Below the pieces are notes generated by a model. That model saw only the letters and a program-made list of their open reading frames with translations. It searched no databases and was not told where the DNA came from. A stretch of 62,365 bases of DNA, filler included, from Hausera hauseri (Eukaryota), in assembly GCA_046269625.1 (NCBI GenBank). It is 12 parts of 12 records of this genome, joined end to end, with 100 filler letters (N's around TTAATTAATTAA, not from the genome) between each part and the next. Parts side by side here need not be neighbours in the genome. Positions count along the whole stretch, not along the records: positions 27,234 to 32,277 come from JBJURY010352931.1; 11 more parts are not named here. One strand, written 5' to 3'. Position numbers and translations under genes: made by a program. Of the stretch, positions 4,316-41,268 are shown piece after piece; position 1 is the stretch's first letter; every line of letters starts with the position of its first letter.

Positions 4316-4374
4316 ATATTTCTATACAACATTTATTGAACAAAGAATAACAAAGAATAACAATATGTACATAG

Positions 4375-9017: not shown

Positions 9018-10690
9018 GGCAACAGATGCAAGCGATTATGGAATAGGAGCAGTATTATTACAGAAGGGTGAAGATGGAAAAGAACACCCTGTGGCCTGTG
9101 CTTCAAGAAAACTTAATAAACATCAAAAGAAATACTCTGTAATAGAAAAAGAGTTATTAGCAGTGATATTTGCCTTAGAAGTATTTTCACCGTACATTAA
9201 TGAAAATAAACCACTTATGATTTATACAGACCATAGACCACTTTAATAGCTAAAACAGCATGAAAATCCAAATAGTAGACTCCTACGATGGGCTCTAAAG
9301 TTACAACCATATACATTGAATTTTCAGTATAAATCTGGCACGCGAAATGCTAATGCCGATTACCTATCGAGACTACCAGATAAAATAGAAACGAAAGCAG
9401 TAGTCGCAGGCACATAGAGTATAAACGGATCAACTGAGAAAATTAAGATGAATCAAGATGAAGATATGGAAATAAGAGCCATTAGGAAATATACAAAAGA
9501 TAAAACTATACCAGTTGACAGAGAATTAACCCGTCACCTGGCGCGATTCAGCGAAGTGTATGAAGGGAAGAAAGGATTTCTATATTTTATTAGTCAAAAC
9601 GGACCTGAATTAGTAATTCCTAAGAAAAATAGAGCAGTTTTATTAACCCAATAACACGATGGATTGCTTGGAGGACACCAATCAGCCAATAAGACATTAA
9701 GCAACTTAAAACGGAAATACTTCTGGCCAACGATAATGAAAGACGTACAAGAATGGTGTGAGAGCTGCAAGTTGTGTGCTACCCCAAAAAACACAGGATC
9801 AAAATTTAAAGCACCGTTAAAGGTATGGGATAACTCTCAAGCACCATTTGAGTTTACCGCGATTGATGTAACGGGACCATTACCGTTAACACGAAATGGA
9901 AACAAATTTATCTTAGTATTTATCGATTATTTCACCAGATGGGTGGTTGCTTTACCAATGCCCGATATGAAGGCAAATACAATTGCTGAAAGATTTGTGG
10001 AAAACAGTGTTTAACTATGGAGCTCCAAGAATTCTCCTGACTGATCAGGCATCAAATTTAACTGGATCAGTAATGCAGTCCATATATGATATCTTGAAAA
10101 TATTAAAGTTGCGATCAACGCCCGGACATCAGGAGAATAATGGAATGGTTGAAAGGTATATTGGAGATCTGAAAAAAAAGTTACAAACGGTAGTAAATAC
10201 TAGGCAAGATGATTGGGACGAATACATCAATGCATGTGTCTTCGTCAATCGCATATCAGTCCATGAGGCTACTAAAGAAACACCCTTCTATTTAATGTAT
10301 TTGCAGAATGCAAGATTACCAATCGACCTAGATTTTAATGTGAAACCCATTTCACATTTAATGGAAATAGAAGACTGTAAACAGTTAATGCAAGAACGAC
10401 TTCAGTTAGCCTGCAAAATGATTGGCGATAATCAAAAAGATTACAAATTAAAGTATAATAAGTACTATGACCAAAAGACTAAACAGCCTAAAATCAAGAT
10501 AGGCGACCAAGTAATGTTGTATTCTCCAGTAATTAAAAAGGGTAAAACGTCTAAGTTAGACAGACCATATAAAGGACCATATGAAGTAGAAAAAGTAAAT
10601 CTACCGAATATTTGTTTGAAGGAAAATAATACTTCCGTAAAAGTACACGTTAATAGATGTAAGCCCGCGGCCAAGGAGAGCGAATTAAGA
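9018..10690 (+). pseudogene. Ty3/Gypsy pol 3' part: RNase H and integrase
   Basis: TDASDYGIGAVL...EKELLAV...TDHRPL; HHCC finger (H..GGH...CESCKLC); DDE residues (AIDVTG, LTDQAS, NGMVER); GPY/F motif YKGPYEV. The RH-IN order is Gypsy-type. Confidence 0.95.
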
Positions 10691-10759
10691 AAGGGTGAAA
10701 AAGAGTTGGTATGTAGCATTTGTGAGAAGGTAATCGAAACGGACGCAACAAACAAACTA

Positions 10760-12725
10760 CGATTAAAAAGGGTATTGGTACTAATCATCATCTTATTATC
10801 TCCCTTAGTGATAGGATAGATGACGGACCAAGAAGTCGAAAAAGCAAAGCTACGACATGCCACGGCCATAAACGAGGATCTATGGTTGAAAAGCTTAAAG
10901 TATCATATAACGTACTCCACGAAAGGCCAGAAATGCATTACCTGGTATATTACAAGAAGAATGCCTGGCGAGTATATTATAGGGATACGAATAACCCCAG
11001 TCTACGGTTATAAAAGAAACTCTAATGAAGGACATAATGATTGTATTCTTCGTTCATCGATAAATGAAACGCAATGTCCAATAGATACTTCAGGGCCACA
11101 TGGAGTACACCTAACACTCATAAAGAAAAAAGAGGATTATTATTAGTTTATATACCAAATTTCACAGGTATATACGTGTTCCCCACAGACATGAAATGAA
11201 CGAAACACTACTCGATGAAATAATACTCGCACAGCTAAGGATAAGATCAATGGGATTTAAAAGTGGACGAAGCTGTCTCGAAGTAAGGAGTATGATAGAG
11301 TTAGAATATATCCGATGGATAACGATATCCATAAAAGAAATAGGAGGTGAACAAAGATTATTGAAATGCGAATTAACAGATGAACAACAACAAGTTTGCT
11401 GTAACGTAACAAGAGGCAGGATATATGAGGTAAAATACACTCTGTCACGGAAGGAACACGGAAAGCTTAAAAATAAAAGGCATAGAACAGGACCGACAAT
11501 GTTTATACGATATAAGAATCAAAAAGAGTATGATGATATACGAGAAGGGATCACGGCAACACCTGTGCAACTCTCAGCTAGTAATAAAGAGATGACTGTC
11601 CTAATTAAGCCTTACGCTTCTTATTACCGCCAAAAACGTTCCATCTGGAATAACGTAACCATCATAGCAGCTCCCACGGCACTAATCATCTCAGTTAAAC
11701 CAGATCTTGACTTCGTAAAAATTAAATTCACTTGTAAAAAACAAGATACTATAATAGCAAAAGGAATCATAACTCCGGATGATCTGATAGTGCCGTGTGC
11801 AGCTCTAGAATCCGATACGAAATATACGATTATGCTACAGTTATTAGATGCTAACGATAAAATAACCTCTACCAAAGTAATGTCCGCAATCACCAAAGGC
11901 AGCAAAGTGGAATCACAATACAGATTAAAGACAATTAAAAATAAGACAACTAAAAAGCCACAACGAGCAGGATATAAACATTCTCGTTTAGAAATAATTA
12001 TAATAAGTTCAATAACCCCTATAGTAATACTAATAGTAGCAGTAATATTAGTTAAGCTGATACAACGACAACGACACAAGAAAAGACAGAGCTGGGTACG
12101 AATCAACTTACGTGAGCTAACGAATTCGTTAGCCACCACTAGTCCCAGCTGACGGTGGAGTTTAGGGATTGCTATTAATGCAACCCTTTTAACGAAGATA
12201 ACCACAGGTCAACAGGTTACCTATAGAGATAAATCAAGTTATAAAACTACAACGATTACCATGGCATGTCTGATAACCGTTGTGTTGCGTGTAGATATTC
12301 ATATTAGCTCGCAATTGACATTTCTATTTACAGTGTCGTCCTCAACCTTTCATCAAGTCCAATCAATTACCAGGTCTAAACACTGGTATAGTAATGCAAA
12401 AAACCTCATAATCAACACCAATCCAGCTAATCAATATTATACGATACAAAACGATCATACAACCAGTTTGAATTACCCACTGACACAAATCCCAAACAGT
12501 CTAAAAGGATATAGTATGGCTGACAGGTCTCTAGCTCTAATGCAGATAACAAAAGCCACATCACTATATCTAATAGACATAATGATTCTTCACGATCGAT
12601 ATCACTCTATAAACATTTATTGTATAGTCGGTCAATTCCATATCAAAACAACAGCTAGAAAAACATCGATAAAAGGTGATCTTATTAATATGAACACTAT
12701 TCTTTTATCCAACAAAATCTATTAA
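10760..12725 (+). pseudogene. Retroelement-borne type I membrane protein (signal peptide, FN3-like ectodomain, TM, cytoplasmic extension) in frame with integrase
   Basis: Hydrophobic VLVLIIILLSPLVIG ends the integrase ORF; TAG at 10817-10819 is followed by an in-frame continuation. Several NxT sequons, an RQKR site and an FN3-like LESDTKYTIML motif. TM LEIIIISSITPIVILIVAVILVKLI is followed by a basic stretch. ORF 12261-12725 is in frame after one TGA. Confidence 0.6.
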
Positions 12726-12814
12726 AAATACGATCCCTTACCAATCGTCTTATATTAGCAATCGAAGTGATAAAGAAAGAAAAATTTTAGCCAAGTGTAC
12801 CTAACGGAAAATGT

Positions 12815-13555
12815 TTGGATCTCCCAGAGCCTGATTACGTAAAATATAGAACAATTCCTTATAGACGTATTCAGAATGTCACAGATAACGATCTGGTCAT
12901 AGCTGCCGTTAATTTGGCCTATGACCAGTGGAATCAACTGCAGCCTATCGAAATATCGATTATAGACTTATATGGAAATACATTATTCTACAGCATCGTA
13001 TCTCCTCGCCAACGTATAAATAACTTCGACAGTCACATAACCGGTTTGGTCGAAACAAATATTGTCAATCAAATGGATCCCCCGGACGTCTACCGCAAAG
13101 TGACAGAAATATTAACCGATAAGATTGTTATCGGGGCCGATGTGGTCGAGATGATCGTGAATTATTTCAAGTGTCCCATACGCCGAATAGCCGGAGTTCG
13201 TGATGTCTTACATCACGAAGAGGTTATTCGGAAATAATAATTGTCAAATAACACTTTCAAAGAATTAGCCCGCAAATTTTATGATTGAAAGGGCTTTCCA
13301 TTACATAGCACCGCTCTGGTGCAATGTTACAAAACAATTTATCGCCAACTTAAATGGAACGACGAACTAATCTTAACTAACACGGCCTCCGATAAGGTGC
13401 GAACAGCACCCATAACATCCACATGTGGCAGAAACAGAAAGGTACAGGTCGATGTAACCGTGGTCATCGACGAAGTATATGAACCGGAATCTATTCGATA
13501 CAAATCTCGATCAACCGGTAAATTCGTCCACGTCCCATTGAGTTTAGATCAGTAA
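12815..13555 (+). pseudogene. REX4/ISG20-like DEDDh exonuclease fold, catalytic residues apparently substituted
   Basis: EISIIDLYGNTLFYSIVSP...NFDSHITGL...KIVIG...FKELARKF...HS follow the REX4/ISG20 pattern, but the ExoI DxE position reads NLA. ORFs 12815-13237 and 13319-13555 share one frame. Confidence 0.6.
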
Positions 13556-13588
13556 ATTCGGGGCAATTTCTTCAGTCCCCCATGAAGC

Positions 13589-17110: not shown

Positions 17111-17302
17111 TCAATCAGGAAAATAAAAATGCCTATCATGGAGGCTTTACATTGATTTTGAGCAAATCATAAAAAGTAAAATATCAAAAGTAGATTATCT
17201 CAATCAAAGTTGTTCACAATCAAAGTTTGTTGCTAATCAAAAGTTGTCAAAGTTAAGTTATCGAGTCAAGTTATCGACAAGTCTTTATTGATAAGTCTCA
17301 AC

Positions 17303-19514
17303 ATTTACCTGACTGGACGTTCTTTCATACCGACATCTGCATCCTTGAAGCAGTCTCTGGCGACTGTGAATGTACAAAATACTAATGACGAATACTGCTT
17401 CAGTTACAGCATTCTGGCTATATTGAAATATGATCAAGTGTCCAAACATCCTGCAAATTGTCCAAAGCAGTACAATAAGTATTTCTCAGAATTGCACTAC
17501 TACGAATGATGGATGCCGATGAAACTCAAAACCATTCCGGCTTTTGAACAGCGTAATCCGACAATAGCAATCAACGTGTTCCAATACAACACAATCGTAA
17601 AAATACCAGTAAACGAAGAGATATACAAAACCCACACGTAGATATAATTTAGCGCAGTCGGAACCCGAATGGACGCTCGGTAAAGTTGTTGCTGTTGGAC
17701 TAAGCAGATAAATTTCACTACGTGGCAGCAACCAATTTGGACAGACTGCTGAACATGGATCACCAACAATTCATCAAAAAGCGTATAAATTGTAAATGGT
17801 GCTTTACATGTCTGCATGGTTTCAGGTCAAAACGACATGGGAAAAACATGTGACACTGTGCAGACAAAATTCATCAGGGAAAACAATGTACGTCATGCCA
17901 GACAAAAAGGAACTGAGATTCATTGACTGGTCGCAAACAGACAGTCCGGCATATGTGGTATATGCCGATATCGAGGCACGCTTACCGCGGCACAACGTAT
18001 GCGACCAAAAGCACATTCCAATCATCGTCGGTATATTGGTTGTTTTAATAAAAGCCGCCGGACAACTGTAATATTACGTTTTTCATGGCTGGAACTGTAT
18101 ACACGATTTCGTGCAACAGTTGGAAACGATAGTGGAAACGGAAATCACACTGTGGTACAGTAACAATAACACTAAGCCCTTGATATGGACAGACAAATAT
18201 GAATCGCTGCTTTTCGCTGCCACCGATGAATATTACCTCTGCCAAAAAATATTGGCTTTTGATACACAGGAACGGCTCGTACCGGACCATGATAATTTCA
18301 CCGGTCGATATCTGGGAGCCGCATGCAACGCATGCGATTTAACAAGGCGATCTTGGTATGCGTGGCGGCATGACATTTGTCAACAAGCATCACGTAACCA
18401 GTGATGATACCACATCACTGTTGTATATTAACATTAATAACCTTTACGGCTGGGCGCTTTCACAACCCTCGCCGTACGGTTCATTCGAATGTATAGTCGA
18501 TAAAGAGGACCTGGACACAATACTGGAAAATCTGTTGAGAGCAGATACGACAACAGCAGAAAACAGCTCAATGGGATACCTGATGGAGGTCGATCTCGTG
18601 GCACCCGATGAGCTGCATGAAGTTTTAGACGATTTACAGGTCGCACCATTTAACTAATGTCTGCCGGGCTCAAAGGTAAAGAAGTTGCTTATGACGCATG
18701 AACTCAAGCAAAATTACATAGTTTATTAGCGTCTGTTGCAATTTTATATTCAGTTGGGTGTATGCGTCACACGAATACATCGCGCAATCCGATTTGCTCA
18801 GGTTCCCATATGCAAGGCGTACATATATGGAAATTTGGAAAACCAGCCGCAGCTTGTAGAAAGTTCGAAAAGGACTATTACAAGCTGAAAAACAATTCTC
18901 TCTATGAAAAGCAATGGAGAATCTGAAAAAGCGGCTCAATGTATGCCTACGCAACAGCGAAAAGCGGCTGGTTACGTATATTAGCAAGGCACAGTTTCGG
19001 CGGTCAATGCACATTGCCGATGGATTGGTTGCGTTGCTGTTAAACAGAGAAGAAGTCGTTCTGGAGCGATTAAGTTACTTCGGACAAGTGGTATTGGACC
19101 TAAGCAAGTTGCGGATGTATGAGCTACGGTATCATGACTTGGTACGTTACCGGCAAATGTTTGACGACAATGACATTTGTATATTTGCCGGTGACATAGA
19201 CAGTTTTTTCCTGCGGCTGAAAAAAGTCAATCGCGAACAGCTACTTCAGCAAATGTAGTCAAATAGATTACTGGACACGTCCAACTACCCACCGGATCGT
19301 CTATTGTACAGTAGCACAATCACCAATAAAATCTTCTGCTTAAAGGTGAAAGTGAATGCAGGGTTCAGTATTGGGAATGGATATTATTACGCCCAAAGTG
19401 CTACAGTCTTCGGACGGACAGTGGACCGAAAATTCTGGCAAAAGGAGTCCAGCTGAGACAGACGGAAATCGGCCACGGTAATTATCGCCGTATATATGAA
19501 GCAGCAGCAGAAGG
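17303..19514 (+). pseudogene. Protein-primed DNA polymerase B (family B copy), 5'-truncated with an internal deletion
   Basis: GRSFIP, DEYCFSYSIL, HYVAATNLDRLL, VYADIE, PDHDNFTGRYLGAACNAC, then directly MRGG, YININNLYG, GDIDS. Confidence 0.92.
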
Positions 19515-24460: not shown

Positions 24461-25379
24461 ATAAATGAATACATTGACTTTTGTAATGTGTAACTCAACA
24501 GCTTCGTGGAGTTTATTTGGCCAATTTGTTAAAATGACTTTCTATGTAAATTCTCAATGTTGACACGTTTGTAATATAAATAGAACAACGTGTTAGACAG
24601 GTATATATAGTAGTATAATTTCATTTCACTCCGTCTCTCTACGTCTCTCTCTCTCTTTCTCTACGACAATAAATTTTTGTGAAGCAAACAATTTGAGTTC
24701 AGCGAGTCAGCCCAGATGAAACGATTATTAGGTTAGACCGGCCTGGTTGTACAATAGGTACAAGGTAAACTTTCTACAAACGCCTGTTCAATTGAGGTTT
24801 GCCAAGAAAATCAATGACAGTGATTTGGACGCGATGGAGGAAACAATGAAAAAACTCGAGAATGACTTGGAGTTGTCTAAAGTTATCCGAGATGCCTCCT
24901 TATTTTTCTTGGGGGCAATATTCGGAAAATTGTCCGTTCAAATGGAGAAGCACTAGCAGTATTGCCAGCTGAAGGAGCTAAAGGCTACAGGGAGATGATG
25001 TTCGTGAAATCCCTAATGTGGAAACTGGCAAAATTCAGTTTGATTTGACGTGATTTTGTGATTTGTGATTAATGCTTAATAAACTTATTTCCATTTGTAG
25101 TGTTAAATTGACTTTTTAACACTATATTAAAATTGAATTAAAACTAACGTTTTCTTAGTCATCATTTAATATGAAGAAAATTAAATAACTATATAAAGCA
25201 GAACGAAAAAGTCGGTGAAGAAAAATACATTATTGTGACATAACAAAAATAAGCAATAAAATTACAAAATATTAGTAATTGTCACAATGTACAAATGACT
25301 GTAACTGGATCACTGAACTGTCTGCCTCGAATCGTCGGAGCACATATGGAGTTACGTGTATGTTTGTGTGTTATTTCAA

Positions 25380-27133
25380 ACACCAATACCCATACGCTTA
25401 TCATCTTTCGCTTATCATCAGTACATGACAAAGCGATTTTTGTGTTTGTTATAGTATACAGCTGGTGCTCCATCAATCGCATGGTCGTTTGACACACAGC
25501 CATTGATTGTCCTCTTCCTTCTCCTTGTCGTCCACCGTCTTTTTCTTTTTCTTTTTCTGCTGCTGCTTCATAGATACTGCGATAATCATCGTGGCTTATT
25601 TCCGTCTGGCACAGCTGAACGCCTTTTGCGCGCATTTTCGCACCACAGTCCGTCAGGAGACTGTAGCACTTTGGGCCCAGGCATATCTATTCTCGGTACT
25701 GAACACGGCCTTCGCTTTCATCCTTGAAGCAGCCGAATTTGTTCGTGATGGTGTTGTTATACAGCGGATGATTCTGCAGGTAATTGGACGTGTTCAGTTG
25801 TTTACCTGCTATCATTTGCTGGAGCAGTTGGTCGCGATTGACGTATTTCAGCTCAAGAAAAATGTTGTTTGCGTCACCGAAAACGATACTGATATCACAG
25901 CCGTCAAACATTTACCGGTAACGTGCCAAGTCGCGATACTGGAGCTCGTACATTCGCAACTTGCTCAAGTCAAATACCACTTGTCCGATATAGCTTGGTC
26001 GGTCCAGTACGATTTATTCCCTGTTTAACAGCACGGCGATCAATCCATCGGCAATGTGCATTGAACGCCTGAACTGAGCCTTGCTGCTATACGTCACTAG
26101 CCGCTTTTTGTTGTTACATAGGCGCATATTGAGTCGCTTTTTGAGGTTCTCTACTGTTTTGACGTAGAGAGAATTTTTTTTCAACTTGTAGTAGTCCTTT
26201 TCGAACTTTGTACAAGCCGTGGCTGGTTTTTCTGATTTTCCGTCAATGCATGCATTGAATATCGGCGCCATATTGAATTTGATTGCCCAATGTAGCTGTG
26301 TGACGCATACACCGAGCTGCATGTAGAACTGTAGCATACGCCAGTGCATCACGTAATTTAGCTTCGGTTCATACGTCATGAGGAGTTTCTTCACCTTTGA
26401 GCCGCCGAGCGGACATTGGCTGATTGGTGCGGCAGGTAATTGGTCCAAAGCGTCATGCAACTCATCCGGTACCACGAGATCAACTTCCATCAGGTAACCG
26501 AATGAGCTGTTTTCTTCCGTGTCTACTCTAGGTAAATTTTCGAATATTGCCTTCAGGTCTTGCTTGTACGTTAACCATTCAAATGAACCATAGGTCAAGG
26601 GTTGTGAAAGCGTCCAGCCATACAGGATATTAATGTCAATGCACAGTAGTGATGTTGTGTTATCATCACTGGCAGCATCAGTAGCACTAACGTGGTGCTT
26701 GTTGAGAAATGTCATGCCGCCACGAATACCAACATCAAACAGTCTGTACATTTCTGGGTCTTAAAACAACTCAATGTCCCAGTCCAATGATATCAGAGTC
26801 AACGCCAAACCCATTCACGGTATGGAGTAAAAGTTGAGCGGCTCCAGACTATCTTCCGCCAACGCTTTAGTCCGAAATGTCTGAAACACGTCGGCCAGCA
26901 AGTACACGTCCAGTTTCAGATTCTGGAGCATGTAATTTAATAGGCTTCTGCAGCCGAGCTCTGACCAAGATTCCTGTGCTCTGCGATATTCATATTCTGT
27001 TATACTGGGCCACTGCGGCGGCAATTCCTCTGTTGTCTGAAGCCGCTCGTACGATATAGCAATGTCATACGGGAATATGCCGTTGCTACGTTCAATATGC
27101 ATCGGAAACTGAGTTGGTGTTAACGGTACATCC
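25380..27133 (-). pseudogene. Protein-primed DNA polymerase B (family B copy), 3' half
   Basis: GIFPYD, LKLDVYLLADVF, GIRGG, IDINILYG, YYKLKKNSLYVKT, GCFKDE, RAKGV, KIALSCTDDKR. Confidence 0.93.
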
Positions 27134-27233: not shown

Positions 27234-28400
27234 GGGTTCTCTCGGTTTTTCAGTCATTGCAATGGTCGATTATCCGTGTATATCACTAAGGGTTTGTTTT
27301 CGCTAATATATGGTGAGAATACTTCTACAGCAAAAATTACTGCCAATGATTCTTTTTCTATTACTGAGTATTTCGTTTGGTGTTTGTTTAATTTCCTTGA
27401 CGCGTATGCCACCGGATGTTCTTTACCATCATTATCTTTTTGTGATAGTACTGCTCCCATCCCATAATCACTCGCATCAGTTGGGTACATGAGGATAGGA
27501 GCGTTTAACAGTTTTTCTTTTAAATTATCAAAAGCCTTTTGACAGTCATTGGTCCATACTACTTTTTCTAAATCCCCCCGTAACAATTCATACAGTGGCT
27601 TGGCTATTTTGCTAAAGTTCTTTATAAATCTACGATAGTAGTTTACTAATCCAAGGAATCGACGTAACTCTTTTACTGTGGTTGGCTTTGGGAAATCTTT
27701 TATCTTTCCTAATAGTCTATCCTGGGACTTTACACCATTTCTATCAAATCGGTGTCCGAGGAAATCCACTTCAGTTTGAGCGAACATACATTTCTTTGGG
27801 TTTATTATTAAGCCAGTGATTTCACATCGATCGAAGAGATTCTGTAAATCTTTCAAGTGTTGCTGAAAATCCGACGATGCTATTATTACATCATCAATGT
27901 ATACCACAGCGTGTGGTGCGTCTAAAAGTAGTAATTCTGTTCCTCGCTGAAATGTTGGTGGTCCATTTTTTAATCCGAACGGCATTCTATTAAATTCCCA
28001 TAATCCTTCCCCTATTGAGAACGCTGTTTTAGGTTTATCTTCCTCTTTTAGCCCCACTTGCCAATATCCCTTTTGTAGGTCAATAGTGGTAAATATTGTC
28101 GCACCATGTAATTTATCTAATATTTCGTCGATCCTTGGTAATGGATAGGTGTCGGTTTCTGTTACTTCATTCAATGCCCTATAGTCTATACAAAATCTCA
28201 TCGTCCCGTCTTTCTTTTTAACCATTACTACTAGTGTAGTCCACGGCCAGCAGCTTGGTCGTATTATTTTATTCTCTCTCATTTCTTTTATAATTTTTCG
28301 AGCCTCTTCCTTTTTGTCGTATGCCAGCTTGTAAAGCCGTTTTTAATGGGCTTATCTTGTCTCTCTTTTAACTTGATAACATGTTGAATAATGTTCATTG
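27234..28400 (-). pseudogene. Ty3/Gypsy reverse transcriptase and RNase H
   Basis: RFCIDYRALN, IDLQKGYWQ, RMPFGLKN, YIDD, FLGH, FLGLVNYYRRFI, TDASDYG, EKE, TDNRPL. Confidence 0.97.
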
Positions 28401-28562
28401 TTCCTAAATCATAATAATTTTGGGCGAATCGACCACTATTATTTTCTAATAGTTGAAGCAACATTTCTTTTTCCTCTTCTGTCAGTGCCGTGGAATTTTA
28501 TAGTTTCTCTTTCCAATTGATCGTGGTGGTTTTCTTTTCCTTATCTTTGTTGGTATTCTATT

Positions 28563-29270
28563 TTAATTTCCTCGACCCCATCTTTTCGATTTATCTACAT
28601 CTGAGATAATCGACTTAGTCTCCTCCTTGGGTATTTCTTCAATTGCCATTATCGATCCGAGTCTGCTATTCCGTTTTAGTTGTTTTTCCTTTGTTCCAGT
28701 GTTACAGATTCTCAAATGGATTTTTTCATCTCTTATTTTATTCGCATGTGGTGTTACTAAAATGTCATATTTATCCATTACGTATGGAGATAGCTCAAAA
28801 TATTCTGACCTTATTGGTAGATTCCTTTCTATTCTACCGTGCACTACCATTTCTGAACGCGGTGGAATAGTAATATCTTCTATCAATGAAACGGCTTCCT
28901 CGTATCGCTTCTCGTTAAAACTTCTAAGTTGGCCCGTCTTAATATCAATATATACGTTATCTAATTGGTGTAATACGTCACATCCCAGTAGTATTTCGTT
29001 CGTTAGATTCTCAGCTACTCTTATAGTGTGGTTTATAATTTGGCCACAAATTTTAATCTTCGCGTCTAGAACCATTTTTATCTCCTCCTCTATTCCAAAT
29101 GCTCCTACATTAATCAGGGTTTCTTCAAGCTTTCGTAATTTACTTTTCAATTTCTTGGGTAACTGACTCCTTCACATTATTGTGGTTATGGATCCGGTGT
29201 CTATTAAGTCAAATAGTGGATACCCATTTACTTCTATTTCTATTTCTGGTCTCGTATACGATCGGGCTTC
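28563..29270 (-). pseudogene. Retropepsin (aspartic protease) followed by a dUTPase-like spacer domain
   Basis: LIDTGS catalytic motif and ILLGCD, then ITIPPRSEMVV...LRICN...RLG. One in-frame TGA at 29172-29174. Confidence 0.88.
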
Positions 29271-29654
29271 GTTCTTAGAACTTACCTTACATGTCGCTTC
29301 GCGATTATATGGTATAGGATTTTCGTTGTAATCCTGTTTTATTCTTAAAATTTGGTACGTGGGGTACATTCCCCCATGTCTTACGTACTGGGGGGCTGAT
29401 GGGTTCATCGACAATTGGTCACTGTAAACTTGTCCATAGTACTCTTCCGCAGGATTTAGTTGTGGTAAATCGGTAACTAATTTCCTTTGATATTTTTGCT
29501 TGTGGGGTTTCAACGGCAATCTTTTAAGTCCATCAATATACCTATTGCCTTTAAATCTAGTGTCTAAGTTGTCCTCACAACTTCTTCCATTCAGGGTGCT
29601 GTAAGGTGAATTATTGTCAGCCTCGTGGTTTCTTTCTTTTGATATTTTCCTTTT

Positions 29655-31490
29655 CTATTTCGCGTCATGATTTGGTAAAAAGCAACTAGCTACTGCTGGT
29701 ATCACCGCTATGAGGATTTTACAAGAACATACCATAGCTGCATGTATACCATACGCTTTACCCAGCGCAGTGAATATCGTTCATAAGGCACTGATAATAA
29801 AATATATAGCCAAGAATCCTGATGCTGCCTGACCGAAGTATAAAAACTTCCCCCACATCTTTTCCATCACGTTTTTTGTAACCTTCTTCAGATAATCCTT
29901 TCCCATTAAATTCGCCCAATGTGGGAAACATTCTCCATCCCACATTACTTTTCTTGTTAGTTTCGTTAATATCCGTTGTCTCTGTTGAGGGAACAATAAC
30001 ATCCTTCGATAATCTTCTACATTTTTTTGCGTGTACATGCCTCCTTAGGATATGCCAGTTAATGGTTCGAATTTCTGATTTCTTTGTAAGTTAATTAAAC
30101 TTAAAGTTTCCGGTGTTGCTACTTCTTCTCTTTTTGGCATTCTGAACCACTTGTCATTTAGTTTAAACATTGGTGGCATATTAAAAGTACAATTATCCAG
30201 TTGCATGGGTTTCGCCCTAGCATCTAATAATATGCGGGTTACCGGTATCACATACCGAGGTTCCATATTATAATTCACTGGCAACTCTGAGGTGCATTCT
30301 TCAGTTTCTCTGATCGCTACCTCTACCTTTTTACATTCAATCGTTACTAATACCTCACCCATCACTCGCCCAATCACTCCTTCTCCAAATGGCATAACCG
30401 GGGCCACCATATCTGGATTCGTTATCACCAACGCCATCTTGTTACGTATTATTTCGTAAATCAATTTACATTCGTTCAGTATTATTTCCCTATATAAGTT
30501 TCGTATTTCCCTTCAAACGTAATTAATCAAATAGTCTATTTTATTATCGAAGTATTGTGTTAATTTGATATCTTTCTTGTCAATTTTTGTTTTCGCCTCC
30601 ATCACCTCTCTCTATAATTGGTCTTGAACATTTGTTCATTACATCTATTGGTCATTCCCATAATTCTTAATCGCATCATTTCTTTGGGGTTTTGTGAGTA
30701 TACTACCGTTGCTACTTCCGTCATTTTTACTTCTTTAACTCCTTCTCTGTAGGTTGCTGTTTCTTTTTCAGCCGTTTTTCCAATTGTTTTGTTAAATTTT
30801 CCTTCTTTTAATAACGTCAAATGACATCTATTTGAAGATGTTTCCCAGGTCATCTTAAATTTTCCCTTATCACATTCACCATTCTCGTATTCACATTCAC
30901 CCATTATTGTCATGAATTTTGTTTGTGAATCGAATAATCCTTCGTATTCTTTTAATTGGACCTGATAATCTTCAATTGCTACCGTTCTTGAAGCAATGGT
31001 GCCTCCAACATCATAATCTACTTTTTTACAGGTGCCTTCCATCGTTTTATCTATTCTTCCTGCTCGAAAAATCCGAGTATACTTTATCTTACCTCGTACG
31101 GCTGGTATCTGAGCATTCTGTATTGTTATGACCCCGATTTTAAAAGCGTCTTGACATTCTGTCCGTGATATTATTATTGGCTCAAAAGGAGTTGTTGGTT
31201 CGATAATTGCGGAGTTTCCTGAGTAGTATACACAGTTGAATAAAAAAATGACTTCTTTACATAACACTCCCCAATTTTGACCTTTATAAATTCTGATTCC
31301 TGATAGACCCAATACCTGTGACCACTAGTTGTTGTTAATTGTTCCGGGTCCGCTTCAGGGCATTTCTCTAGATCAATTAAGAAATACTTTTGTTCTTCTT
31401 TTGGCTTTGAACAATCATAAGCCATTATTCCCATAGCTTTTGGCATGCAAATAGATGCTATTAGTAATATTAGTAATATTTCCATAAAGG
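29655..31490 (-). pseudogene. Env-like class III fusion glycoprotein (chuvirus G / herpes gB-like) embedded in the Gypsy element
   Basis: Signal peptide ILLILLIASICMPKAMG, then IMAYDC...LEKCP; ISRTECQ; GEVLVTIECKKVEVAIRETEECTSELPV...PVTRIL; GGMYT...LLFP; C-terminal TM GFLAIYFIISAL. These motifs match chuvirus-like glycoproteins. Confidence 0.82.
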
Positions 31491-32277
31491 ACATTCCACC
31501 CAAACCTTGTTTACTCATGCTTGGTTGTGTTGTGATTGGTCTTTCCGGTATTTCCCCTTCTGATCTTAATCTGCCATTCATCAGACTAGGTATTTATCCA
31601 CCTATACACGGTACCCAATTTCCTAGAGTATCACGCAAAATTTTAACAGTCACCTTTATATTCCGTTTGATTTCGTCCAAGTTCTGTGTTTAATAATTAA
31701 TAATGATCACTTTATATATCATGTAGGCAACGGCCGTAATAACCTTTTCCCGTGTGATCCCTGTGGAAAACATCTCCAATATATTTTGCTCATGGAGTTC
31801 GTTAATTCGTTCTTCATTAATATTTTCATAAAATTGTCTGCTAATTCTTAACATATTATTTCGTAGCGTCTGCAACAATTCGTCAGGGATAGCAATTTGC
31901 ATATCAAACGATGCAAACGACGTATGTAGTTTTGCTAGCAGCGTTCGCAACAAGGGATCTATATTTACTGCTTCTGGTATCGTATCCGTTTCTGTTAATA
32001 ATAATCGTCTTACGATTTCTTCGTTCCGATCTTTTTTATTGCAAGTGTCACTTATTTTTGTTCCCTTTGACCTTTCTTTCATTCAAGCTTCGATCTGCAC
32101 CATGACATCTTGAGTGCCACCCAATAGCTGTTCTTCCGCTATTCGGGGTTCTACCTCCCTCACTATATTAGTTATTGTTTCTTCCGCCCTTGTTTCTGGA
32201 TGTATTTCAGTTATAGTGATTGGATTATAGTTCTCGCTTCGACACCCAATTCTTAATAGTTGATTATAGCTGTATAA
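31491..32277 (-). pseudogene. Conserved unknown domain X preceding the glycoprotein
   Basis: EEIVRRLLLTE...RTLLAKL...IKVTVKIL...WVPCIGG*IPSL, in the same frame as the G signal peptide. Homologous to 39267-39993. Confidence 0.6.
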
Positions 32278-33099
32278 NNNNNNNNNNNNNNNNNNNNNNN
32301 NNNNNNNNNNNNNNNNNNNNNTTAATTAATTAANNNNNNNNNNNNNNNNNNNNNNNNNNNNNNNNNNNNNNNNNNNNAAATTCATTCAAAATGTTTGTTT
32401 TGACCTCATAACTTCCGAACAACACGAAAGTAACTATGAGCAACATACTATCGTCTGCTCATTATCCTGGTTTCTGTCAGCTCACATAGCTACTGAACGT
32501 CAAACACATGTCCAGTCATTATTTCATCTGTAAATTTCCGAATTTCACTCTCAATGTACTCTTCCATTTAAGTTGTAATATGTAATATGGTTGATATGTT
32601 TATACCTGAGTAAAAGAAATAATTTAGTGTATATCAATTTATTAAATAATTGTACTTAATGTTTTCAATTTAAAGTTAATAAGTTAGTGTATATAAATTT
32701 ATTATATAATGGTATTTAATGTTAATATTTACTTTAATTTGTTTAAATTTAGAAATGTAATCAATATCCCACGTATTGCGTCTCTCGCATACATGAGGAG
32801 GCAGAAGATGATGCTAGTGCATTGCTCCATGTATCCATGTTACTGTACAAGTAGAGTGCCCAACGTTGATGGTTGCCATAGTGCATTGGAGCAATACTAT
32901 GGCGCCACAACGGTGCACGGTAAACGGGCCTATGTATGTCCCGGTTGTTCTATAGTTGATAATGAAATCAACTATGAATAATTTTATAATGAGCACAAGG
33001 GCCAATTGAACCAGTTTCAGAGGTCCAAAAAGGAAGTATTAATGGAAGCAGAAAAAAGCAGTATTCCCTCAACAAGCAGGAAACTTCAAGCATCAACAA

Positions 33100-36000
33100 G
33101 CCTTGATGAATACATGCAAAGCAGAAATACAGAGCATCAGCAGCAGAAGCAGCAGCAGCAGCAAGAACCGCCCATTACTGTCAAGTACGATCTAAACAAA
33201 TATAAGTATAAAAGTAAACATGTCGGTGAAATCAGCAACTGAACTGAGGCACATACCCGCTCATGTGCGCAACCGCTTAGAAACCGAAGTAAAGAAATTC
33301 AAACACCACAACTGCAAAGCGCAATATTATGTACTTGCAGAATTTGAGAATCTGCAAGCTGACAGGAAACAGTGGTACCTGTCACATCGAGCAGTTCCAT
33401 ATTCCAAAGATTTCATTGCCGACTTAGGCGAAAAGCTGGACGAAAAAATCGCCAACTACACCGAAAAGGACAGTGGTTGGCGAATAATAAAAATTGTCAC
33501 TCTCGGTTTTATTATAACAAAGTCGAGTGACATAATTTACCTGTCCGGACGTTCATTCATACCGACACCTGAAGATCTAAAGCACTCTTATGCTGTAGTG
33601 AATGTAAAAAATACGGACGGTGATTACTGTTTTATTTACAGTATTCTGGCGGTATTAAAATATGACGAAGTGGGCAGACATAGTGAATATCGTCCGAGTC
33701 AGTATCGGCAGTATTTTTCTGAATTGCAATTCAACGAAAACTGGATGCCGATAAAACTAAAAACCAATCCGACACTGTCAGTCAACGTGTTACGGTAAAT
33801 TACAATAGTTGAAATACCGACAGACGAAGGAATTTACAAGAATCCACATGTGGATATAATCTATCGAAGACGGAACCAGAATGAACGCACAGTAAATTTG
33901 TTAATGTTAAACCAGGCAGATACATTTCATTACGTGGCCGTAACAAATTTGGACCGACTGCTGAACATGGATCACCATCAGTTTGACCAAAAACAAATAC
34001 GTTGTAAATAGTGTCCTGCATGTCTGCATGGCTTCAGATCAGAAACCACGTGGGAAAAACATGTGACGCTGTGCAGACAGAATGCATCAGGAACAACAAT
34101 GTACGTCATGCCAGTCAAACAAAAGTTGAGATTTAGTGACTGGTCTAAAACGGACAGTCCAGAATATGTGATATGTGCTGATATTGAAGCAATCCTACTA
34201 CAGCACGACGTATACGATCAAAAACATGTTCCATTTGCCATCGGAATGTTGGTTGTCCCAAAAAATCTGCAGGTCAACCGCAGTATTACATGTTTCACGG
34301 CTGGAACTTAGTGCATGATTTCCTGCATCATTTGGAAACAATAGTTGAATCGGAAATCTCACCGTGTTATCGCAATAACAGAACAAAACCCCTGATTTGG
34401 ACAGATGAAGGTGAAAGTTTGACGTTTGCAGGCACTGAGGAATGTTATCTGTGCCATAAAATATTACCGTTTGACGCACAGGAACGACTCGTACCGGATC
34501 ACGACCATTTTACCGGTAGATACTTGGGAGCAGCACGTAAATCATGCAATTTACCGAGGCTAGTGCGGCCAATCCTACCAATGATCTTTCATAATTTCCG
34601 AGGTTATGATTGTCACCATATACTGAAATGGGCCATCAACGGATTTCCGTACTGGGAACTGTCCATAATCTCAACAATGGATAAGTACCTGTCCTTGTCA
34701 GCACGCATAAACCGGTTCCAGATACACTTCCTTGATTTATTGCAATTTCTCAATGAATCACCGGCGAAGCTGGTAAATGTCTTGTCGGATGAGCCGATAA
34801 CCTCAACGCAGTTCTCTACACATATTGAACGCAGCAAAGGTACATTTCCATATAACTTTGCAATATCATATGAGCGACTCCGGACAGCAGAGGAATTACC
34901 GCCGCAATGGACAGGCATCACAGAACTTAAATATCAGAGAGCACAAGAATCTTGGACAGATCTCGGCTTTAAAAACATGTTGGATTACATGCTATGCATC
35001 TTAAACTGGACGTATACTTATTAGCCGATGTGTTCCAGGCGTTTTGAGCGAAAGCGTTGGCTGAAGATAGGCTGGAGCCACTCAACTTATATTCCATACC
35101 AGGAATGAGTTGAGCGTCAGCTCTAATGTCACTGGATCGAGATATTGTGCTGCTACAAGACCCGCAAATGTACCGGCTGTTCAATGTTAGTATTGGCGGC
35201 GGCATGACATTTGTCTACAAGCACCAGGTCAGTGCTACCGATACCACATCACTGCCATATATTGACATTAATAACCTGTATGGCTGCGCACTTTCGCAAC
35301 ACTTGCCGTACGGTTCATTCGAATGGGTTGTCGACAGACAAGATGTGGACTACATAATAGTCAAACTACCACGAGCAGACATGGCAGGCTCAGTCGGATA
35401 CCTGATGAAGGTCGATTTCGAGATACCAGACAAGCTGCATGACGTTTTGGACGATTTGCCGTTCTTACCATTTAACCAATGTCCATAATGCTCAAAAGTG
35501 ACGAAACTGCTCATGACGTATGAACCGAAACTGAATTACGTGGTCCATTGGCGTCTGCTACACTTCCACATGCAGCTCGGTGTACGCGTCACACAGCTGC
35601 ATCGTGCAATCGATTTGCTCAGGCTCCCATATTCAAGGCGTACATAGATGAAAATTCGGAGAAACAAGCCGCAACTTGTACAAAGTTGGAAAAGGACTAC
35701 TACAAGCTGAAAAACAATTCTCTGTGCGGAAAAACAGTGGAGAATCTGAAAAAGCGGCTCAGTGTACGCCTATGCAATAGCGAAAAACGGTTGGTCACCT
35801 ATACAAGTAAGGCGCAGTTTCGGCGGTCAATGCACATTGCCAATGGATTTGTTGCGGTGCTGTTAAACAGAGAAGACGTCGTTCTGGATCGGCCAAGTTA
35901 CATAGGACAAGTGATATTGGACCTGAGTAAGTTGCGGATGTATGAGCTACAGTATCGCGATTTGGCACGTTACCGGCAAATGTTTAATGGCTGCAATATT

Positions 36001-36332
36001 GACATAATTGCCGGTGACAGACAGTTTCTACCTGCGGCTGAAAAACATCAATCGCGAACAGCTACTGCAGCAAATGCAGTCAGGTGGATTACTGGACACG
36101 TCCAACCACCCACCGGATCATCCGTTGTACAGCAGCGCGATCACCAATAAAATCGTTTGCTTCAAGGATGAAAATAAAGGTCTTGTCCGATATCGGTAAT
36201 GGATATTTCTACGACCAAAATGTCATAGCCCTTTAACCGACTGTGGACCGAAAACGCGCGCCAAAAGAGTCAAGTTGAGACAAACGCAAATCGATCACGG
36301 TGATTATCGCCGTATGTATGAAGCAGCAGCAG
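33100..36332 (+). pseudogene. Protein-primed DNA polymerase B (family B), near full length, C-terminus missing
   Basis: DSGWRI, GRSFIPTP, DYCFIYSIL, HYVAVTNLDRLL, CADIE, CYLC..DHDHFTGRYLGAA, FHNFRGYD, KGTFPY, YIDINNLYG, YYKLKNNSLCGKT, FKDE. Confidence 0.93.
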
Positions 36333-36804
36333 ATGAAGCTGCAGAACAGTTCAGCTTATCTTGCAGAGATCCAATAAGTTTGCATGTTCCACCTCTCCCT
36401 TTCTTCTCCCCGCTACATATGCTCAGTGATAAGGTCCCATCTGGTGTGACTGGTAGGGACAGAGGAAGCTTACTTGGTGGGAACTCGGGGAGGTCTAGAA
36501 CTGATGGAGTTATAGAAGAATAAATTGGGATGACATATGAAAATATAAGACCGGAAATAGTAGCCCAAAACAGATTAAACTGCTTTTACCCGTCCCCACG
36601 GAAGAAAACGTGTTTGAAACAATAATTTACTAATATTTTTAAAATATTATCAACTCGAACTGATAGAGAAATGGATAATAAGACGAATCCTCAATTTAAA
36701 CACCACCCGCTACGCAACCCATGTCTTGGAAACAATTTAATCCGTATTTCAGATGTAGATTTTTCGGACTGGTGATACTCAACCCGCATAAAAAAATAAC
36801 TAAC

Positions 36805-37105: not shown

Positions 37106-38659
37106 GAATCTATATAGAAAAACAATGTACAGTTATAAACATTCGTATATACAATATATGCACACATATAACTTCCAGCAAGTTACCCAGAAACCCCTGC
37201 AGCTACTCAACCTTCTTTAAAGGCAGTGGACTCAGTTCTTCTTTTACTACCCTGTAATGTCAGCAGCACGACCAGCTACTGTGATAGAGGTTGCTCACAT
37301 GTTCACTCACGCTGTCTACCAGACGACTGTGACAACAGTTTACACACATGTTTTTTCAGTCATTAACCAATAAAATGTGGGGCAGCTTTAGCTAGGGACA
37401 GGTCGCCTAATAAGGAGACTGTCCCTGGAAATGAGATGTTTGATCACCCTAATCTCAGTTCTGGTGTACTGGATTAATCCTCTACATACGGTAAGTAGAA
37501 TAAAAGTAAGAGATTTGTATATCTCATAAAACCTGCAACAGATAACACAAAACTGTTACACAAACCTACTCAGTTCTGATGTTGATCTCAAACTAATATA
37601 CCAGTTTCAATTTACAAATCACATGATAAAGTTACAAAAGTTTTACTCTTCTGTTGGAATTTAAAGCAACAAAGGTAGTTCTTTTAGACTCCACACTCAA
37701 AACATCTGTATTACTCAGTCTTTCCTCACCCATGATTGATCTTTATCAGATAAGAATCCGAATCAGCTTTATTGCCGTTGTCAATGAACATNNNNNNNNN
37801 NNNNNNNNNNNNNNNNNNNNNNNNNNNNNNNNNNNTTAATTAATTAANNNNNNNNNNNNNNNNNNNNNNNNNNNNNNNNNNNNNNNNNNNNAAACTATAG
37901 TCTCCGTTTCCTGTTTTCAGCTGTCTAATAACCAGCAGCCGGTGTGGTCTCCTGCTGCTGTAGCTAATCTGCTTCAAGGATCAGCATGTTGTGCATTCAG
38001 GGATATTATTTTTCATTACTCGAGCGACTTGTCGTTTCATCATCTTCAAGCAGTCTGTCTGTTCTGACATCAACAAGTCATTGTCATACCTTACAACTCG
38101 ATGTTTCCTCATTTTCAGACCATTCCCTGTAAACTCGAGGAACAGTTGTGGTATCTGTGTAGGCAAGCCAGTTTAGACGAGCCTTACGATGAATCAGGCT
38201 TATGGTCTGAAGAAGCGGAGCTGGGGAGAGAAACTCAAAGCTTTCAGGGAGTTTGAAGTCTTTGGAGTTGTGAGATTGATGTTCTGTGGGTTTGTATGTT
38301 GTTTGAATGCCCAAACAGAAACACTCCTTCCCAAGCCGCCCCCCTACACAATTGCAGGGGTTGGTTTGGAGTAAGTGTTTAAACTGTTTTCAAAAATTTG
38401 AGGCAGGGAATTGATCTTTCTTGATCCTTTTTCCGCGTACGTTACTGATATAAACGTCACCTTCATCTCTTCCTTCCACGAAAGCTTTAAGTACGATTTC
38501 TCTTTTGGTTGGTATTAATACATCTTAATAATATAATACATCTTAATACAATACGTAAATTGTAGAATTGAGAGCAAGTGAATTGGACTTGCGAATCAAC
38601 AAAGAGATTCCACGCTTGGAAACGGCAGCCCAAACTAAAATTTTGGGGCAAAATTTCTG

Positions 38660-39266
38660 CAGTTATTGATTCGCCGGTATCACATGCTTTATTATAGTAG
38701 TCACATTCAGGGCATGTCATCATTATTCCAGGTGATAGTTCAAAAAGAGCATCATATTCTCTCAGCTCGACTTGGTAATCTTTAATGGCTACTACATTAT
38801 CCAGAATTTCTCCATTTGCATTGTAGGATTCTCCCTTACAATAGCATGTCTTATCAATTGATCCGGCTACGAAAATCTTCTTGTTGATAGCTTTTCCTTT
38901 TTGAGCCTTTAATCGAATGCTTCTGATTTTAATGTTTTGTCACGAAAGCTTCTATACACATTTGTTTACTTATCGGAAGTGGTTCGAATGGGATGGTTGG
39001 CTCTACCATGGCTGAGTCGCAAATAAAGTGGAAGTAGTTTTTTCACACAAAATATTCTTTCACTTTAGTTTTTACAAATTCTGATTCTTGATAAACGTAG
39101 TCTTTATTGGTTACTGTAGTTAATGATGTCAGATTAGCATATGGACATTTTTCTAAGTCTAACAGAGAATATATCGGACCTTCTTTCGCTTGGCTACAGT
39201 CGTAGGCAGTGATTGAAAATGATCTCAAGATGAAATTAAATAAGAAAAGTATGGGAAGAATTTTAA
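38660..39266 (-). pseudogene. N-terminal part of a second chuvirus/gB-like glycoprotein, truncated
   Basis: ITAYDCSQAKEGPIYSLLDLEKCP...YQESEFVKTKV and ECDYYNKACD align with the 29655-31490 glycoprotein. Confidence 0.8.
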
Positions 39267-40349
39267 TTACCCAAGACAGATCAATATCTGACAGTTGATT
39301 ATGTTGTTTTGTTGGGAGGATGGAAGGTTTTCTATTTGTGTCTGAACTACAGGTGCTGATTCTTGTATCGTTGTTTGTATCAAACTATTGATCCATCCTC
39401 CTCTGTACTTTACCCAACCTTCTACATTAACTTCCAATTCTCTTGCGGTAATTTTTATTTTTGTCTCTATCTTCTTGATTTGAGTTTGAACCATTTATCT
39501 CCATTATTTTATACAGGAGATAAGACAGCCGTCACAATCTTACTTCTAGATATACCTGTTCCCATCATTCTAGAGAGTATCTTTCTCTGGTATCTCACTT
39601 GTTCTTTCGTCTGCGAATATGTGCCAATTGCTCACTTATCTTTGCTATTTCACTTTTGATTGTCCGTACTAGTGAATTTGGTACTTGCAAATTTGTATTA
39701 AACTCAACAAAGGTATTGTACATTCTTGCTAACAAAGTTTGTGGCAATGTCGTCAATGAGAAATTACCTGGATCATCTTCAGTTGTTAATAACCTTCGAA
39801 CAGCTTCATCATATCCTGCTTTTCTGTTCTTTAGTTGACAGTTTCGTTGTACCTTTAGGTCTACCTTGGTTTCTTTTATCAATTTGAATCTCTTCTGATA
39901 TAGGAATACTTGCTTCGATTTCTGTTTGTTGAACTTCATGGTGGGGTTCAACTTCTGGCATATCTTTTTGTCTAGATTCAATGAGAATTTCATCTACAAC
40001 ATAAACAGGATCGTATCTGTTTTCTCACATACAAACGTCGTATACATATTCAGAATCTAGCAATGTTTGTCCATAGAAACGTAATCCTAACAATAATTAA
40101 ATTATCGTTATTCATTTTCTGTGATTTTTCGCAGATCTGCTGCTCTTTTAATTCTAAATATAGCTGTTTTAGTTCGGCCACTTTATCTTTATCATCTACC
40201 ATATTCATTTTACACTCTTTAAATTTAGCTCTAATCTTTTGTTGGAGCTTTTCTACTGTATCTTCAGGTTCTGTATCTGTAACTTCGTGTTCATAATCTG
40301 TGTCGGATATATTGCCAATCATATCAACATGTCTCTTTTTTGAATCCAA
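39267..40349 (-). pseudogene. Linker and domain X between gag and the glycoprotein
   Basis: DEAVRRLLTTE...QTLLARM and IKITAREL...WVKYRGGWINSL are homologous to 31491-32277. ORF 40050-40349 is in frame with the gag zinc-knuckle ORF. Confidence 0.6.
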
Positions 40350-40352
40350 CTG

Positions 40353-41070
40353 TCATTTAGTAAGACAGGAACGGGTCATGTGTCCATATTTCTGACATGA
40401 GAAACATAAGGGTTGTCCATCTAGGTTAACCATTGGTTTTCTTATTGCGGATTTTTGAGGTTGACTTTGAAAGGTAACCTTCTTCTGCTGTTGTTCCGGC
40501 TGATTTGGGAACTTTTGAAATGGCTTTTGTTGAAAAATTTTCACTTTTCATCGCTTTTGGGATGCTTTTTTACATTCTCCAACCTTTCATAACTTACTTC
40601 AATTTTTTGAACTTTACTGACAGCTTCTTTATGTGTCAGAATCAGCAACGAGTGTAATTCTGGATTTCTTTATTAACTCCACAACAGAACTGAGCTAAGA
40701 AAGCGTCTTCTCTAATATCTTCATCTACATGGGTTCTCCGAGCCAACTTATGAAGGACATATGCATACTCTTGCACGGTTTTGCCTTTTCTCTGACGTAT
40801 CCTGTTGAAATCTCTAAATTGACCCTTTCCTGACGGGTTTACTAAGAGCCTTTCTTCCAGGGACTCCTTAAGGCTAGCCAATTAATTTTTATCATCATCT
40901 TTAATTTGTGTATAAACTCTGGGTGCTACTCCTTTTAGATGAGGCGGAAGACCCTTTATCCTCAGCTCGTCTGTCCATTCATAGCTATTTGAGTACATCT
41001 CGTACTGCATCAAGAACTCACTATAGTCCTGATCTGGTTTGCTTTCCAATTTGTCCATCGGCAAAACCAT
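40353..41070 (-). pseudogene. Ty3/Gypsy Gag (capsid plus CCHC nucleocapsid)
   Basis: FLMQYE...W...LPPHLKGVA; RQRKGKTVQEYAYVLHKLA (MHR-like); QFCCGV; CFSCQKYGHMTRSC zinc knuckle. Confidence 0.9.
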
Positions 41071-41250
41071 TGTGCCATTACTGCATAAGCTGGTACCTAA
41101 TCCTGAATTGGGTATCCACGGATTTTTTTTCTACTTGGTTTTCGTCTGTTTCAGAACCGGATGGGCTTATCCCCGAATCCATGTTTTCGATTGTTATTTA
41201 TAGCGCACGCTTTACGTTTATTTCGTTAAGAATACGACGCCGATGTGCCT

Positions 41251-41267
41251 CCTCAATCGGGGCACCA
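41251..41267 (-). promoter_or_regulatory. Primer-binding site complementary to the 3' end of elongator tRNA-Met
   Basis: Minus strand reads TAACA-T-TGGTGCCCCGATTGAGG. It matches the vertebrate elongator tRNA-Met 3' end (CCTCACACGGGGCACCA, recalled) at 15 of 17 positions and lies about 180 bp upstream of gag. Confidence 0.75.
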
Positions 41268-41268
41268 A

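Follow-up and report, generated by a model that had tools for sequence, protein, structure and literature searches.

How does an envelope gene come to lie in the middle of a Ty3/gypsy retroelement, upstream of and in frame with its protease and polymerase, and what might such a layout mean for the way the element makes its proteins? The question is raised by one contig (JBJURY010352931.1, positions 27234-32277) from Hausera hauseri (GCA_046269625.1), part of the stretch of DNA analyzed here (the window; 62,365 nucleotides, filler included). The window consists of 12 contigs of 4 to 7.5 kb each, joined by N44-TTAATTAATTAA-N44 spacers, and contigs across a spacer are unlinked. A single element copy fills the entire contig 27234-32277, flanked by these spacers, with Gag, integrase (IN), and the long terminal repeats (LTRs) falling beyond its ends. 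Taking the whole chain of evidence together, we consider it likely that the contig holds a degraded Burro-like Ty3/gypsy element with intact relatives that encode a one-frame Gag-Bcl-2-Env-Pol polyprotein that threads through the endoplasmic reticulum (ER) membrane and is cut by signal peptidase and by its own protease.

On the minus strand, the contig reads domain X, signal, fusion glycoprotein G (PF24664), transmembrane segment (TM), tail, protease (PR), reverse transcriptase (RT), and RNase H (RH), with the following features.

31966..32277, minus strand: linker 5' of the Bcl-2-like domain, truncated by the contig end and in the domain X frame by frame analysis; one stop, 32083-32085, at which 7/7 related contigs (see below) differ from the window
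31594..31965, minus strand: domain X, Bcl-2-like (BH1/BH2 region) by Pfam, profile, and model; stops 31690-92 and 31594-96
31423..31479, minus strand: internal signal sequence or signal anchor before G, h-region 31444-31479, from hydropathy; cleavage predicted
29850..31422, minus strand: class III (gB/chuvirus-type) ectodomain in three frames, from PF24664, tblastn, and the fold of a relative; breaks near 31250 and 30610; stops 30513-15 and 30045-47
29763..29846, minus strand: G transmembrane segment TM1, from hydropathy and relatives; stop 29781-83 at its end
29256..29762, minus strand: cytosolic tail and linker to the protease, with a second hydrophobic stretch (29676-29732) and one stop (29655-57), the frame being open otherwise
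28959..29255, minus strand: aspartic protease in the G frame, DTGS at 29190-29201; stop 29172-74; Pfam RVP, E of 2.1e-7 with stops read as X
28630..28885, minus strand: beta domain between PR and RT, aligning with relatives in the protease frame
27746..28342, minus strand: Ty3/gypsy-type RT, YIDD at 27890-27901, in a different frame from PR in this copy; RVT_1, E of 7.4e-35
27257..27556, minus strand: RNase H, truncated by the contig end; RT_RNaseH_2, E of 9.4e-30

The initial annotation of this contig had described the same order, four open reading frames (ORFs; 30045-30464, 29781-30038, 29172-29519, and 28563-29150) sharing one minus-strand frame with isolated stops, and a domain X in frame with the G signal, and all of this held up. 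Frame 30512-28566 has 4 stops in 649 codons (30045-47, 29781-83, 29655-57, and 29172-74, with no others), whereas the remaining two frames contain 72 and 53. When the bases of the tail (29175-29654) were shuffled, 0 of 20,000 shuffles were stop-free, and 29301-29780 retained one stop or fewer in 2 of 20,000. The frame that joins domain X, the signal h-region, and the N terminus of G has 3 stops in 316 codons, compared to 32 and 24 in the others. The further claim, that G is in frame with protease-pol, stands through the protease and the next domain and fails beyond them in this copy, where RT, behind frame breaks near 28570-28590 and 28342 and a stop at 28498-28500, lies outside the protease frame. 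The annotation was also silent on breaks within G, which is itself spread over three frames, being broken near 31250 and 30610 and carrying a stop at 30513-15, with its C-terminal half in one frame with the protease. Frame continuity is thus directly visible up to the domain that follows the protease, and the remainder of pol rests on relatives.

Intact relatives supply that remainder. The G-tail-PR frame, with stops as X, was used as a HMMER query against 1.84 billion representatives and gave 882 matches at E ≤ 0.001. G and protease occurred in one protein in 8 of the 11 best matches; of the remaining three, one was a fragment, one stopped after the TM, and one, a gag-G protein, stopped at the protease. 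The remaining matches listed were mostly stand-alone glycoproteins of ~650 amino acids. Six proteins carried G, PR, RT, and RH together: P0123 (2,855 amino acids), P0124 (2,627), P0131, P0176 (3,243), P0272 (4,844), and P0275 (3,003). In the intact relatives, G, PR, RT, RH, and IN share one ORF of 2,600 to 4,800 amino acids, and two relatives, both metagenome loci, were checked as DNA. Locus L002 is stop-free over 3,703 codons and encodes two CCHC knuckles, a weak ubiquitin match, G, proteases, RT, RH, and IN, while L001 is stop-free over 3,426 codons and truncated at its 5' end; no LTR pair was found within either locus as retrieved. P0124 aligns to window positions 30605-28638 as a single segment, and the TM-to-protease spacing of 218 residues in the window compares with 129 to 223 residues in 11 of 12 relatives. 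Env therefore lies in frame between gag and pol, as seen from the frames and stops of the window, from the intact relatives, and from gag in a second copy (described below), and for this single-frame architecture taken alone we regard the case as close to certain. The proposal of the initial annotation that env sits within one gag-pol polyprotein, with Env fused to PR-Pol, is upheld by these one-ORF relatives, by the stop between TM and protease being a minority state among related contigs, and, for its class III fold, by the gB-like G of a relative (both below). The processing it envisaged, by signal peptidase plus the retropepsin, is a likely prediction.

Some of these relatives show peculiarities of their own. 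Tandem proteases occur in L001 (2-10279) and P0272 (up to six Pfam stretches), with an extra signal/TM pair between them, and P0272 has ankyrin repeats too. The intact env-pol polyprotein P0124 was deposited as a hypothetical protein of a Flavobacteriaceae metagenome-assembled genome and is likely animal DNA in a bacterial bin. The same glycoprotein is fused behind Ig domains in P0225 and lies in frame 3' of integrase in P0193.

The pol domains identify the element as Ty3/gypsy (Metaviridae), with PR, RT, and RH in order and IN following RH in the relatives and in window contig 9018-14106. The 120 best RT matches carry the same RVT_1 and RT_RNaseH Pfams. In an RT tree of 31 rows (LG+G4), hand-chosen from 129, the sister group of the window comprised two pol pieces and seven env-in-frame relatives (94/98, just below the starred level); P0176 fell outside the env-in-frame clade. 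Pfam scans of the beta domain at 28630..28885 gave no match. By position, it is likely the dUTPase-like domain named at the same place in Burro (PMC6431247).

G itself is matched by the Pfam family of Monjiviricetes fusion glycoproteins (PF24664) in four colinear pieces (E of 9e-7, 5e-8, 1.5e-30, and 1e-16), and tblastn with intact relatives covered the G pieces of the contig in colinear order. A model of G from the relative P0128, built with 96 sequences, had a predicted local distance difference test score (pLDDT) of 81.8. Its best Foldseek match was gB of herpes simplex virus 1 (HSV-1), with an E of 9.4e-14; 115 rows had E ≤ 0.001, and all rows listed were gB. A sequence profile of G also ranked gB first, weakly (the 29 best of 33 rows, E of 0.1 to 0.73), and Atlas neighbors of G were gp64, rhabdovirus G, and PF24664 clusters. 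A gB-like class III ectodomain of the HSV type thus lies between a signal/TM segment and a TM. The WG.F..FG motif of the TM1 region is kept in 12 of 12 relatives listed.

Upstream of G, the tests of domain X point in one direction. The Pfam Bcl-2 family matched domain X of the contig at an E of 0.0012 and 5 of 7 aligned stretches, with a best E of 2.2e-5. Searches of PDB with domain X profiles of 4 and 7 stretches returned Bcl-xL on top (E of 7e-4 and 1e-3), and in a Foldseek search with the domain X model, 45 of 45 rows listed were Bcl-2-family structures (E of 0.09 to 0.3). The single domain X sequence gave only chance-level matches to PDB sequences (E of 0.22 to 0.24). Because the stretches were hand-picked for lying ahead of the G signal and, in part, for a BH2-like motif, and because P0123 and P0126 have no evident Bcl-2-like domain before G, this evidence is concordant rather than strong. 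Each test being weak and all of them agreeing, domain X is read as a Bcl-2-like domain directly 5' of env. Between it and G, the signal h-region has a hydropathy of 3.2 over 12 residues, and a signal stands at the equivalent position in 13 of 13 relatives listed. A ubiquitin-like domain suspected by eye at the start of the contig had no significant match (best iE of 2.1), and the contig begins downstream of the expected place; among the relatives, Pfam ubiquitin matched weakly in L002 (E of 0.018) and in a third metagenome locus, L003 (E of 0.0047).

Two other contigs of the window extend the element in both directions.

38640..41076, minus strand: second, more decayed copy on contig 37892-42100, by tblastn; Gag capsid 40660-41076, CCHC knuckle ~40360-40470, domain X, signal, and N-terminal half of G
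9018..13234, plus strand: likely 3' part of the same family on contig 9018-14106, by similarity; RNase H, integrase, signal-like stretch ending at 10816, ORF 11124-12149 with an FN3-like domain and a TM, and DEDDh-type exonuclease 12893-13207

In the second copy, tblastn recovered domain X (E of 1.6e-11) and the N-terminal piece of G (E of 6.5e-18) in one frame, and the gag of L003 and L002 matched at E of 1.5e-17 and 4.8e-15, respectively. This copy shows that gag lies upstream of X-env in the source genome. Contig 9018-14106 is probably the 3' end of the same family, as judged from sequence similarity: its RNase H is 85% identical to that of 27234-32277 over 74 amino acids, and its RH-IN region matches relatives. 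ORF 11124-12149 encodes 342 amino acids, FN3 being a lead only (Atlas score of 0.85), and the exonuclease matches ORF2 of L002 (E of 1.9e-13), which in turn matches RNase_T. A second membrane protein and an accessory nuclease are also present in L001, L002, and database relatives. By BLAST, only two pairs aligned, both weakly, among the 7 post-integrase membrane proteins of the relatives and of contig 9018, and neither pair involved the window sequence, so a common origin of these proteins rests on position and hydropathy only.

The relatives also share a pattern of hydrophobic segments. Exactly four uncharged hydrophobic segments occur in P0124, P0275, and L002, as a signal and a TM, then PR and RT, and then another signal and TM; relatives end with this second signal, an ectodomain, and a TM 3' of integrase. 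L001 and P0272 have one additional signal/TM pair, located between proteases, and since a whole pair is added, RT is always preceded by an even number of segments. The route that such a protein might take follows from standard ER biology. The internal signal after the Bcl-2-like domain would direct G into the ER lumen, and cleavage by signal peptidase would leave Gag-(Ubl)-Bcl-2, where Ubl is a ubiquitin-like domain, on the cytosolic face, anchored by the signal stub much like a tail-anchored Bcl-2 protein. TM1 would stop transfer, so that PR-RT-RH-IN would be synthesized on the cytosolic side while still attached to the G tail. The second signal and TM, after integrase, would place a further type I protein in the membrane. 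Gag and Pol would in this way come apart as they are made. A membrane shared with Gag and Env would bring Pol into the particle, the protease would free it at budding, and particles formed in this way might spread from cell to cell. The Bcl-2-like domain would likely dampen host apoptosis. As a tentative extension, which we find conceivable without favoring it, signal peptidase may part Gag from Pol cotranslationally, the Env tail may be the only carrier that brings Pol into particles, the same signal may anchor the captured Bcl-2 domain, and the FN3-like type I protein after integrase may provide receptor binding or an immune decoy for the gB-type fusogen.

Several observations weigh against the threading model. 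The 27234-32277 copy is dead, and with at least nine stops and four frame breaks it is a decayed member of its family, lacking intact GAG, ENV, and POL ORFs. The gB fold was computed on G of P0128, which is 41% identical over the C-terminal half, and not on the broken G of the window; the domain X model has low confidence (pLDDT of 56.6), and none of the Foldseek rows listed for it reaches an E of 0.001. The window could not be placed in an earlier RT tree of 55 rows built with a quick mixture model. In L003, the gag-Ubl-Bcl-2-G frame has one stop, 3058-3060, between Bcl-2 and G, which could reflect decay or a variant that is read through. The scan for hydrophobic segments is crude: it made extra calls in beta-rich parts of G and PR in P0123 and P0272 and missed one signal in L001, and P0176 lacks a clean pair pattern. 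Beyond TM1, the window and 1 of 12 relatives (P0132) have another hydrophobic stretch, and a membrane crossing there would place Pol in the lumen; since Pol is cytosolic in the threading model, this stretch would have to be amphipathic or re-entrant. Companion changes in 29655-57 and the other stops were not among the variant rows listed for the related contigs considered below.

The main alternative accepts the single frame as real and differs on how it is used. Pol and most Gag would come from spliced or subgenomic RNAs that skip env, and Pol would be packaged as ordinary Gag-Pol. Two points speak for it: translation of one ORF yields Gag, Env, and Pol at 1:1:1, a ratio far removed from the excess of Gag that retroelements usually make, and in other LTR elements env or gag is under splicing control. 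However, the frame is open across both junctions in ORFs of 2,600 to 4,800 amino acids in divergent relatives, and the hydrophobic segments stay paired, which splicing alone does not require. We therefore judge env-skipping RNAs to be rather unlikely and prefer translation of the whole frame across the ER membrane.

A second alternative bears on the stop codons themselves. It gives Env and Pol an ORF each, or else links them by leaky read-through of the 29655-57 stop, in the manner of gammaretroviral gag-pol. In its favor, stop 29655-57 lies outside conserved domains, just after the membrane region. This codon was compared with related contigs, taken from one public run that contains a third of the words of 27234-32277. 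The run may be from the window's own species or sample, so these contigs offer a view of sister copies rather than of independent taxa. A total of 11,040 run contigs align to 27234-32277, 339 of them at ≥99% identity and 5,692 at <90%, which makes the family large and mostly diverged. The variant tables list 40 of 99 rows for codons 29655-57 and 29172-74 and 40 of 1,795 rows for codon 32083-85. At 29655-57, between the TM and the protease, 29 contigs differ from the window, with 1253.8 of 1293.6 summed depth (97%), and the differing codon is non-stop when read in the window's context; at the protease stop 29172-74, 23 contigs differ (288.7/323.8 summed depth, 89%). Stop 29655-57 is thus private to the 27234-32277 copy and a minority state among related contigs. 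Among the rows listed, the only indels of ≥30% within 29140-29800 were two in one contig that cancel each other; length differences concentrate at the PR-to-RT break, near 28570-28590. Ungapped pieces of other copies tile the region from TM through linker to PR (29625-29793, 29490-29688, and 29298-29557; 29298-29793 overall). With no stop between TM and protease in the relatives either, the separate-ORF and read-through readings are largely refuted, and we consider them very improbable.

An artifact or accident, such as chimeric assembly or the landing of an endogenous chuvirus-like gene in an ordinary gypsy element, might be suspected in a repeat-rich assembly presented as a string of short contigs, with no run piece among those listed spanning the whole of 27234-32277, but we hold it to be the least probable explanation of all and refuted by independent intact relatives, given that other copies tile the TM-linker-PR junction, a second window contig carries gag-X-signal-G, the same order recurs in unrelated databases and loci, and the RT groups with the env-in-frame clade.

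Is such an element new? Less so than it first seemed, as the arrangement had already been published for Burro/GYPSM1 in 2019 (PMC6431247) and for GAG-ENV-POL elements with gB-type Env in 2026 (PMC13524379). Burro, a planarian giant gypsy element (Arkhipova and Yushenova, 2019, PMC6431247), is described as having one ORF, gag-Ubl-BCL2-env-PR-RT, with CCHC knuckles, an env between BCL2 and PR that matches mononegavirus fusion glycoproteins, and a dUTPase-like domain between PR and RT, followed by RT-RH-IN. Decayed fragments with stops and frameshifts are reported there for another planarian. Like Burro, the window family has env in frame between gag and pol and a BCL2-like domain directly before env. 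One protease precedes RT in 27234-32277, and several do so in some relatives. Other Burro features, namely, giant size (>30 kb), long LTRs, MATH, BIR, and ankyrin domains, and a dugesiid host, are beyond what a 5-kb contig shows, and the available parts of the Burro account mention neither a second membrane protein after integrase nor an exonuclease ORF. The likeness is judged by description, the window RT having been set beside other env-in-frame relatives. As far as those parts of the account go, the window element works like Burro, showing the Burro features that can be tested on the contig, and its layout is already published.

Chary and Hayashi (2026, PMC13524379) described GAG-ENV-POL gypsy elements in Platyhelminthes, Nematoda, and Bryozoa whose Env is of the gB type and homologous to chuvirus G. 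Two of these errantiviruses, in Schmidtea, have 45 and 215 copies, and C1a is the cysteine-bridge type of the Schmidtea elements. The window element shares their gypsy pol, gB-type Env, and GAG-ENV-POL order, and by eye the N-terminal half of its G resembles domain I-II of Smed_errantivirus_3, unlike the bryozoan sequence shown there. That study keeps intact copies only, whereas the 27234-32277 copy is broken, and its main text has no mention of in-frame, polyprotein, frameshift, fused, or single ORF. Env before pol in a metavirus was also found among noncanonical endogenous retroviruses of nematodes (Sacco et al., 2022, as cited in PMC13524379). Those elements have nematode hosts, and their likeness to ours is by description. 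They reportedly contain a continuous gag-env-pro-pol ORF, and we know of no Bcl-2 domain in them.

BEL/Pao elements with chuvirus G (Dezordi et al., 2020) carry a glycoprotein of the same superfamily (PF24664), but, going by the available part of that description, the window differs in its gypsy-type RT and in having env in frame before the protease. Membership in BEL/Pao (Anakin) was rejected on the gypsy-type RT matches and the position of G upstream of PR. The signal/TM pairing, the post-integrase second membrane protein, the Pol-packaging model, and the exonuclease ORF were not found in the literature searched; Grohme 2018 with its supplement and Sacco 2022, which lie outside it, may cover part of this.

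The host lineage can be approached through another contig, which carries a beta-adaptin gene (host AP-1/AP-2; 42535-44789, minus strand) whose best matches are from trematodes, at 61 to 63% identity. In a tree of 27 rows, without free-living flatworms, it groups with trematodes at 100/99, which points to a likely flatworm host outside the sampled trematodes, with the caveats of long-branch attraction and of a beta-adaptin contig unlinked to the element.

Elsewhere in the window, 4316-8917, 14207-19514, 25282-27133, and 32378-36523 are decayed, mutually similar polymerase-like regions, which by eye we take to be protein-primed type-B DNA polymerase-like and Polinton/Maverick-like. Also by eye, a 309-nucleotide inverted repeat (94%) at 46649-48237 surrounds a Tc1/mariner-like transposase remnant (47554-48021), and two related gag-like ORFs of another gypsy lineage (56092-56742 and 61660-62364) are 86% identical over 300 nucleotides.

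The sequence adds one decayed member, from a likely flatworm and a very large copy family, to a kind of element that has been published but little studied. This kind matters as the only retroelement layout with a viral fusogen threaded through the middle of Gag-Pol, and it may be likened to flaviviruses, which process one polyprotein at the ER. The segment pairing, the second membrane protein, and the exonuclease ORF, found across divergent relatives, yield testable predictions on Pol packaging and Bcl-2 anchoring. If these are true, this would be an LTR element whose replication, and not just its spread, depends on an envelope and on membrane budding.

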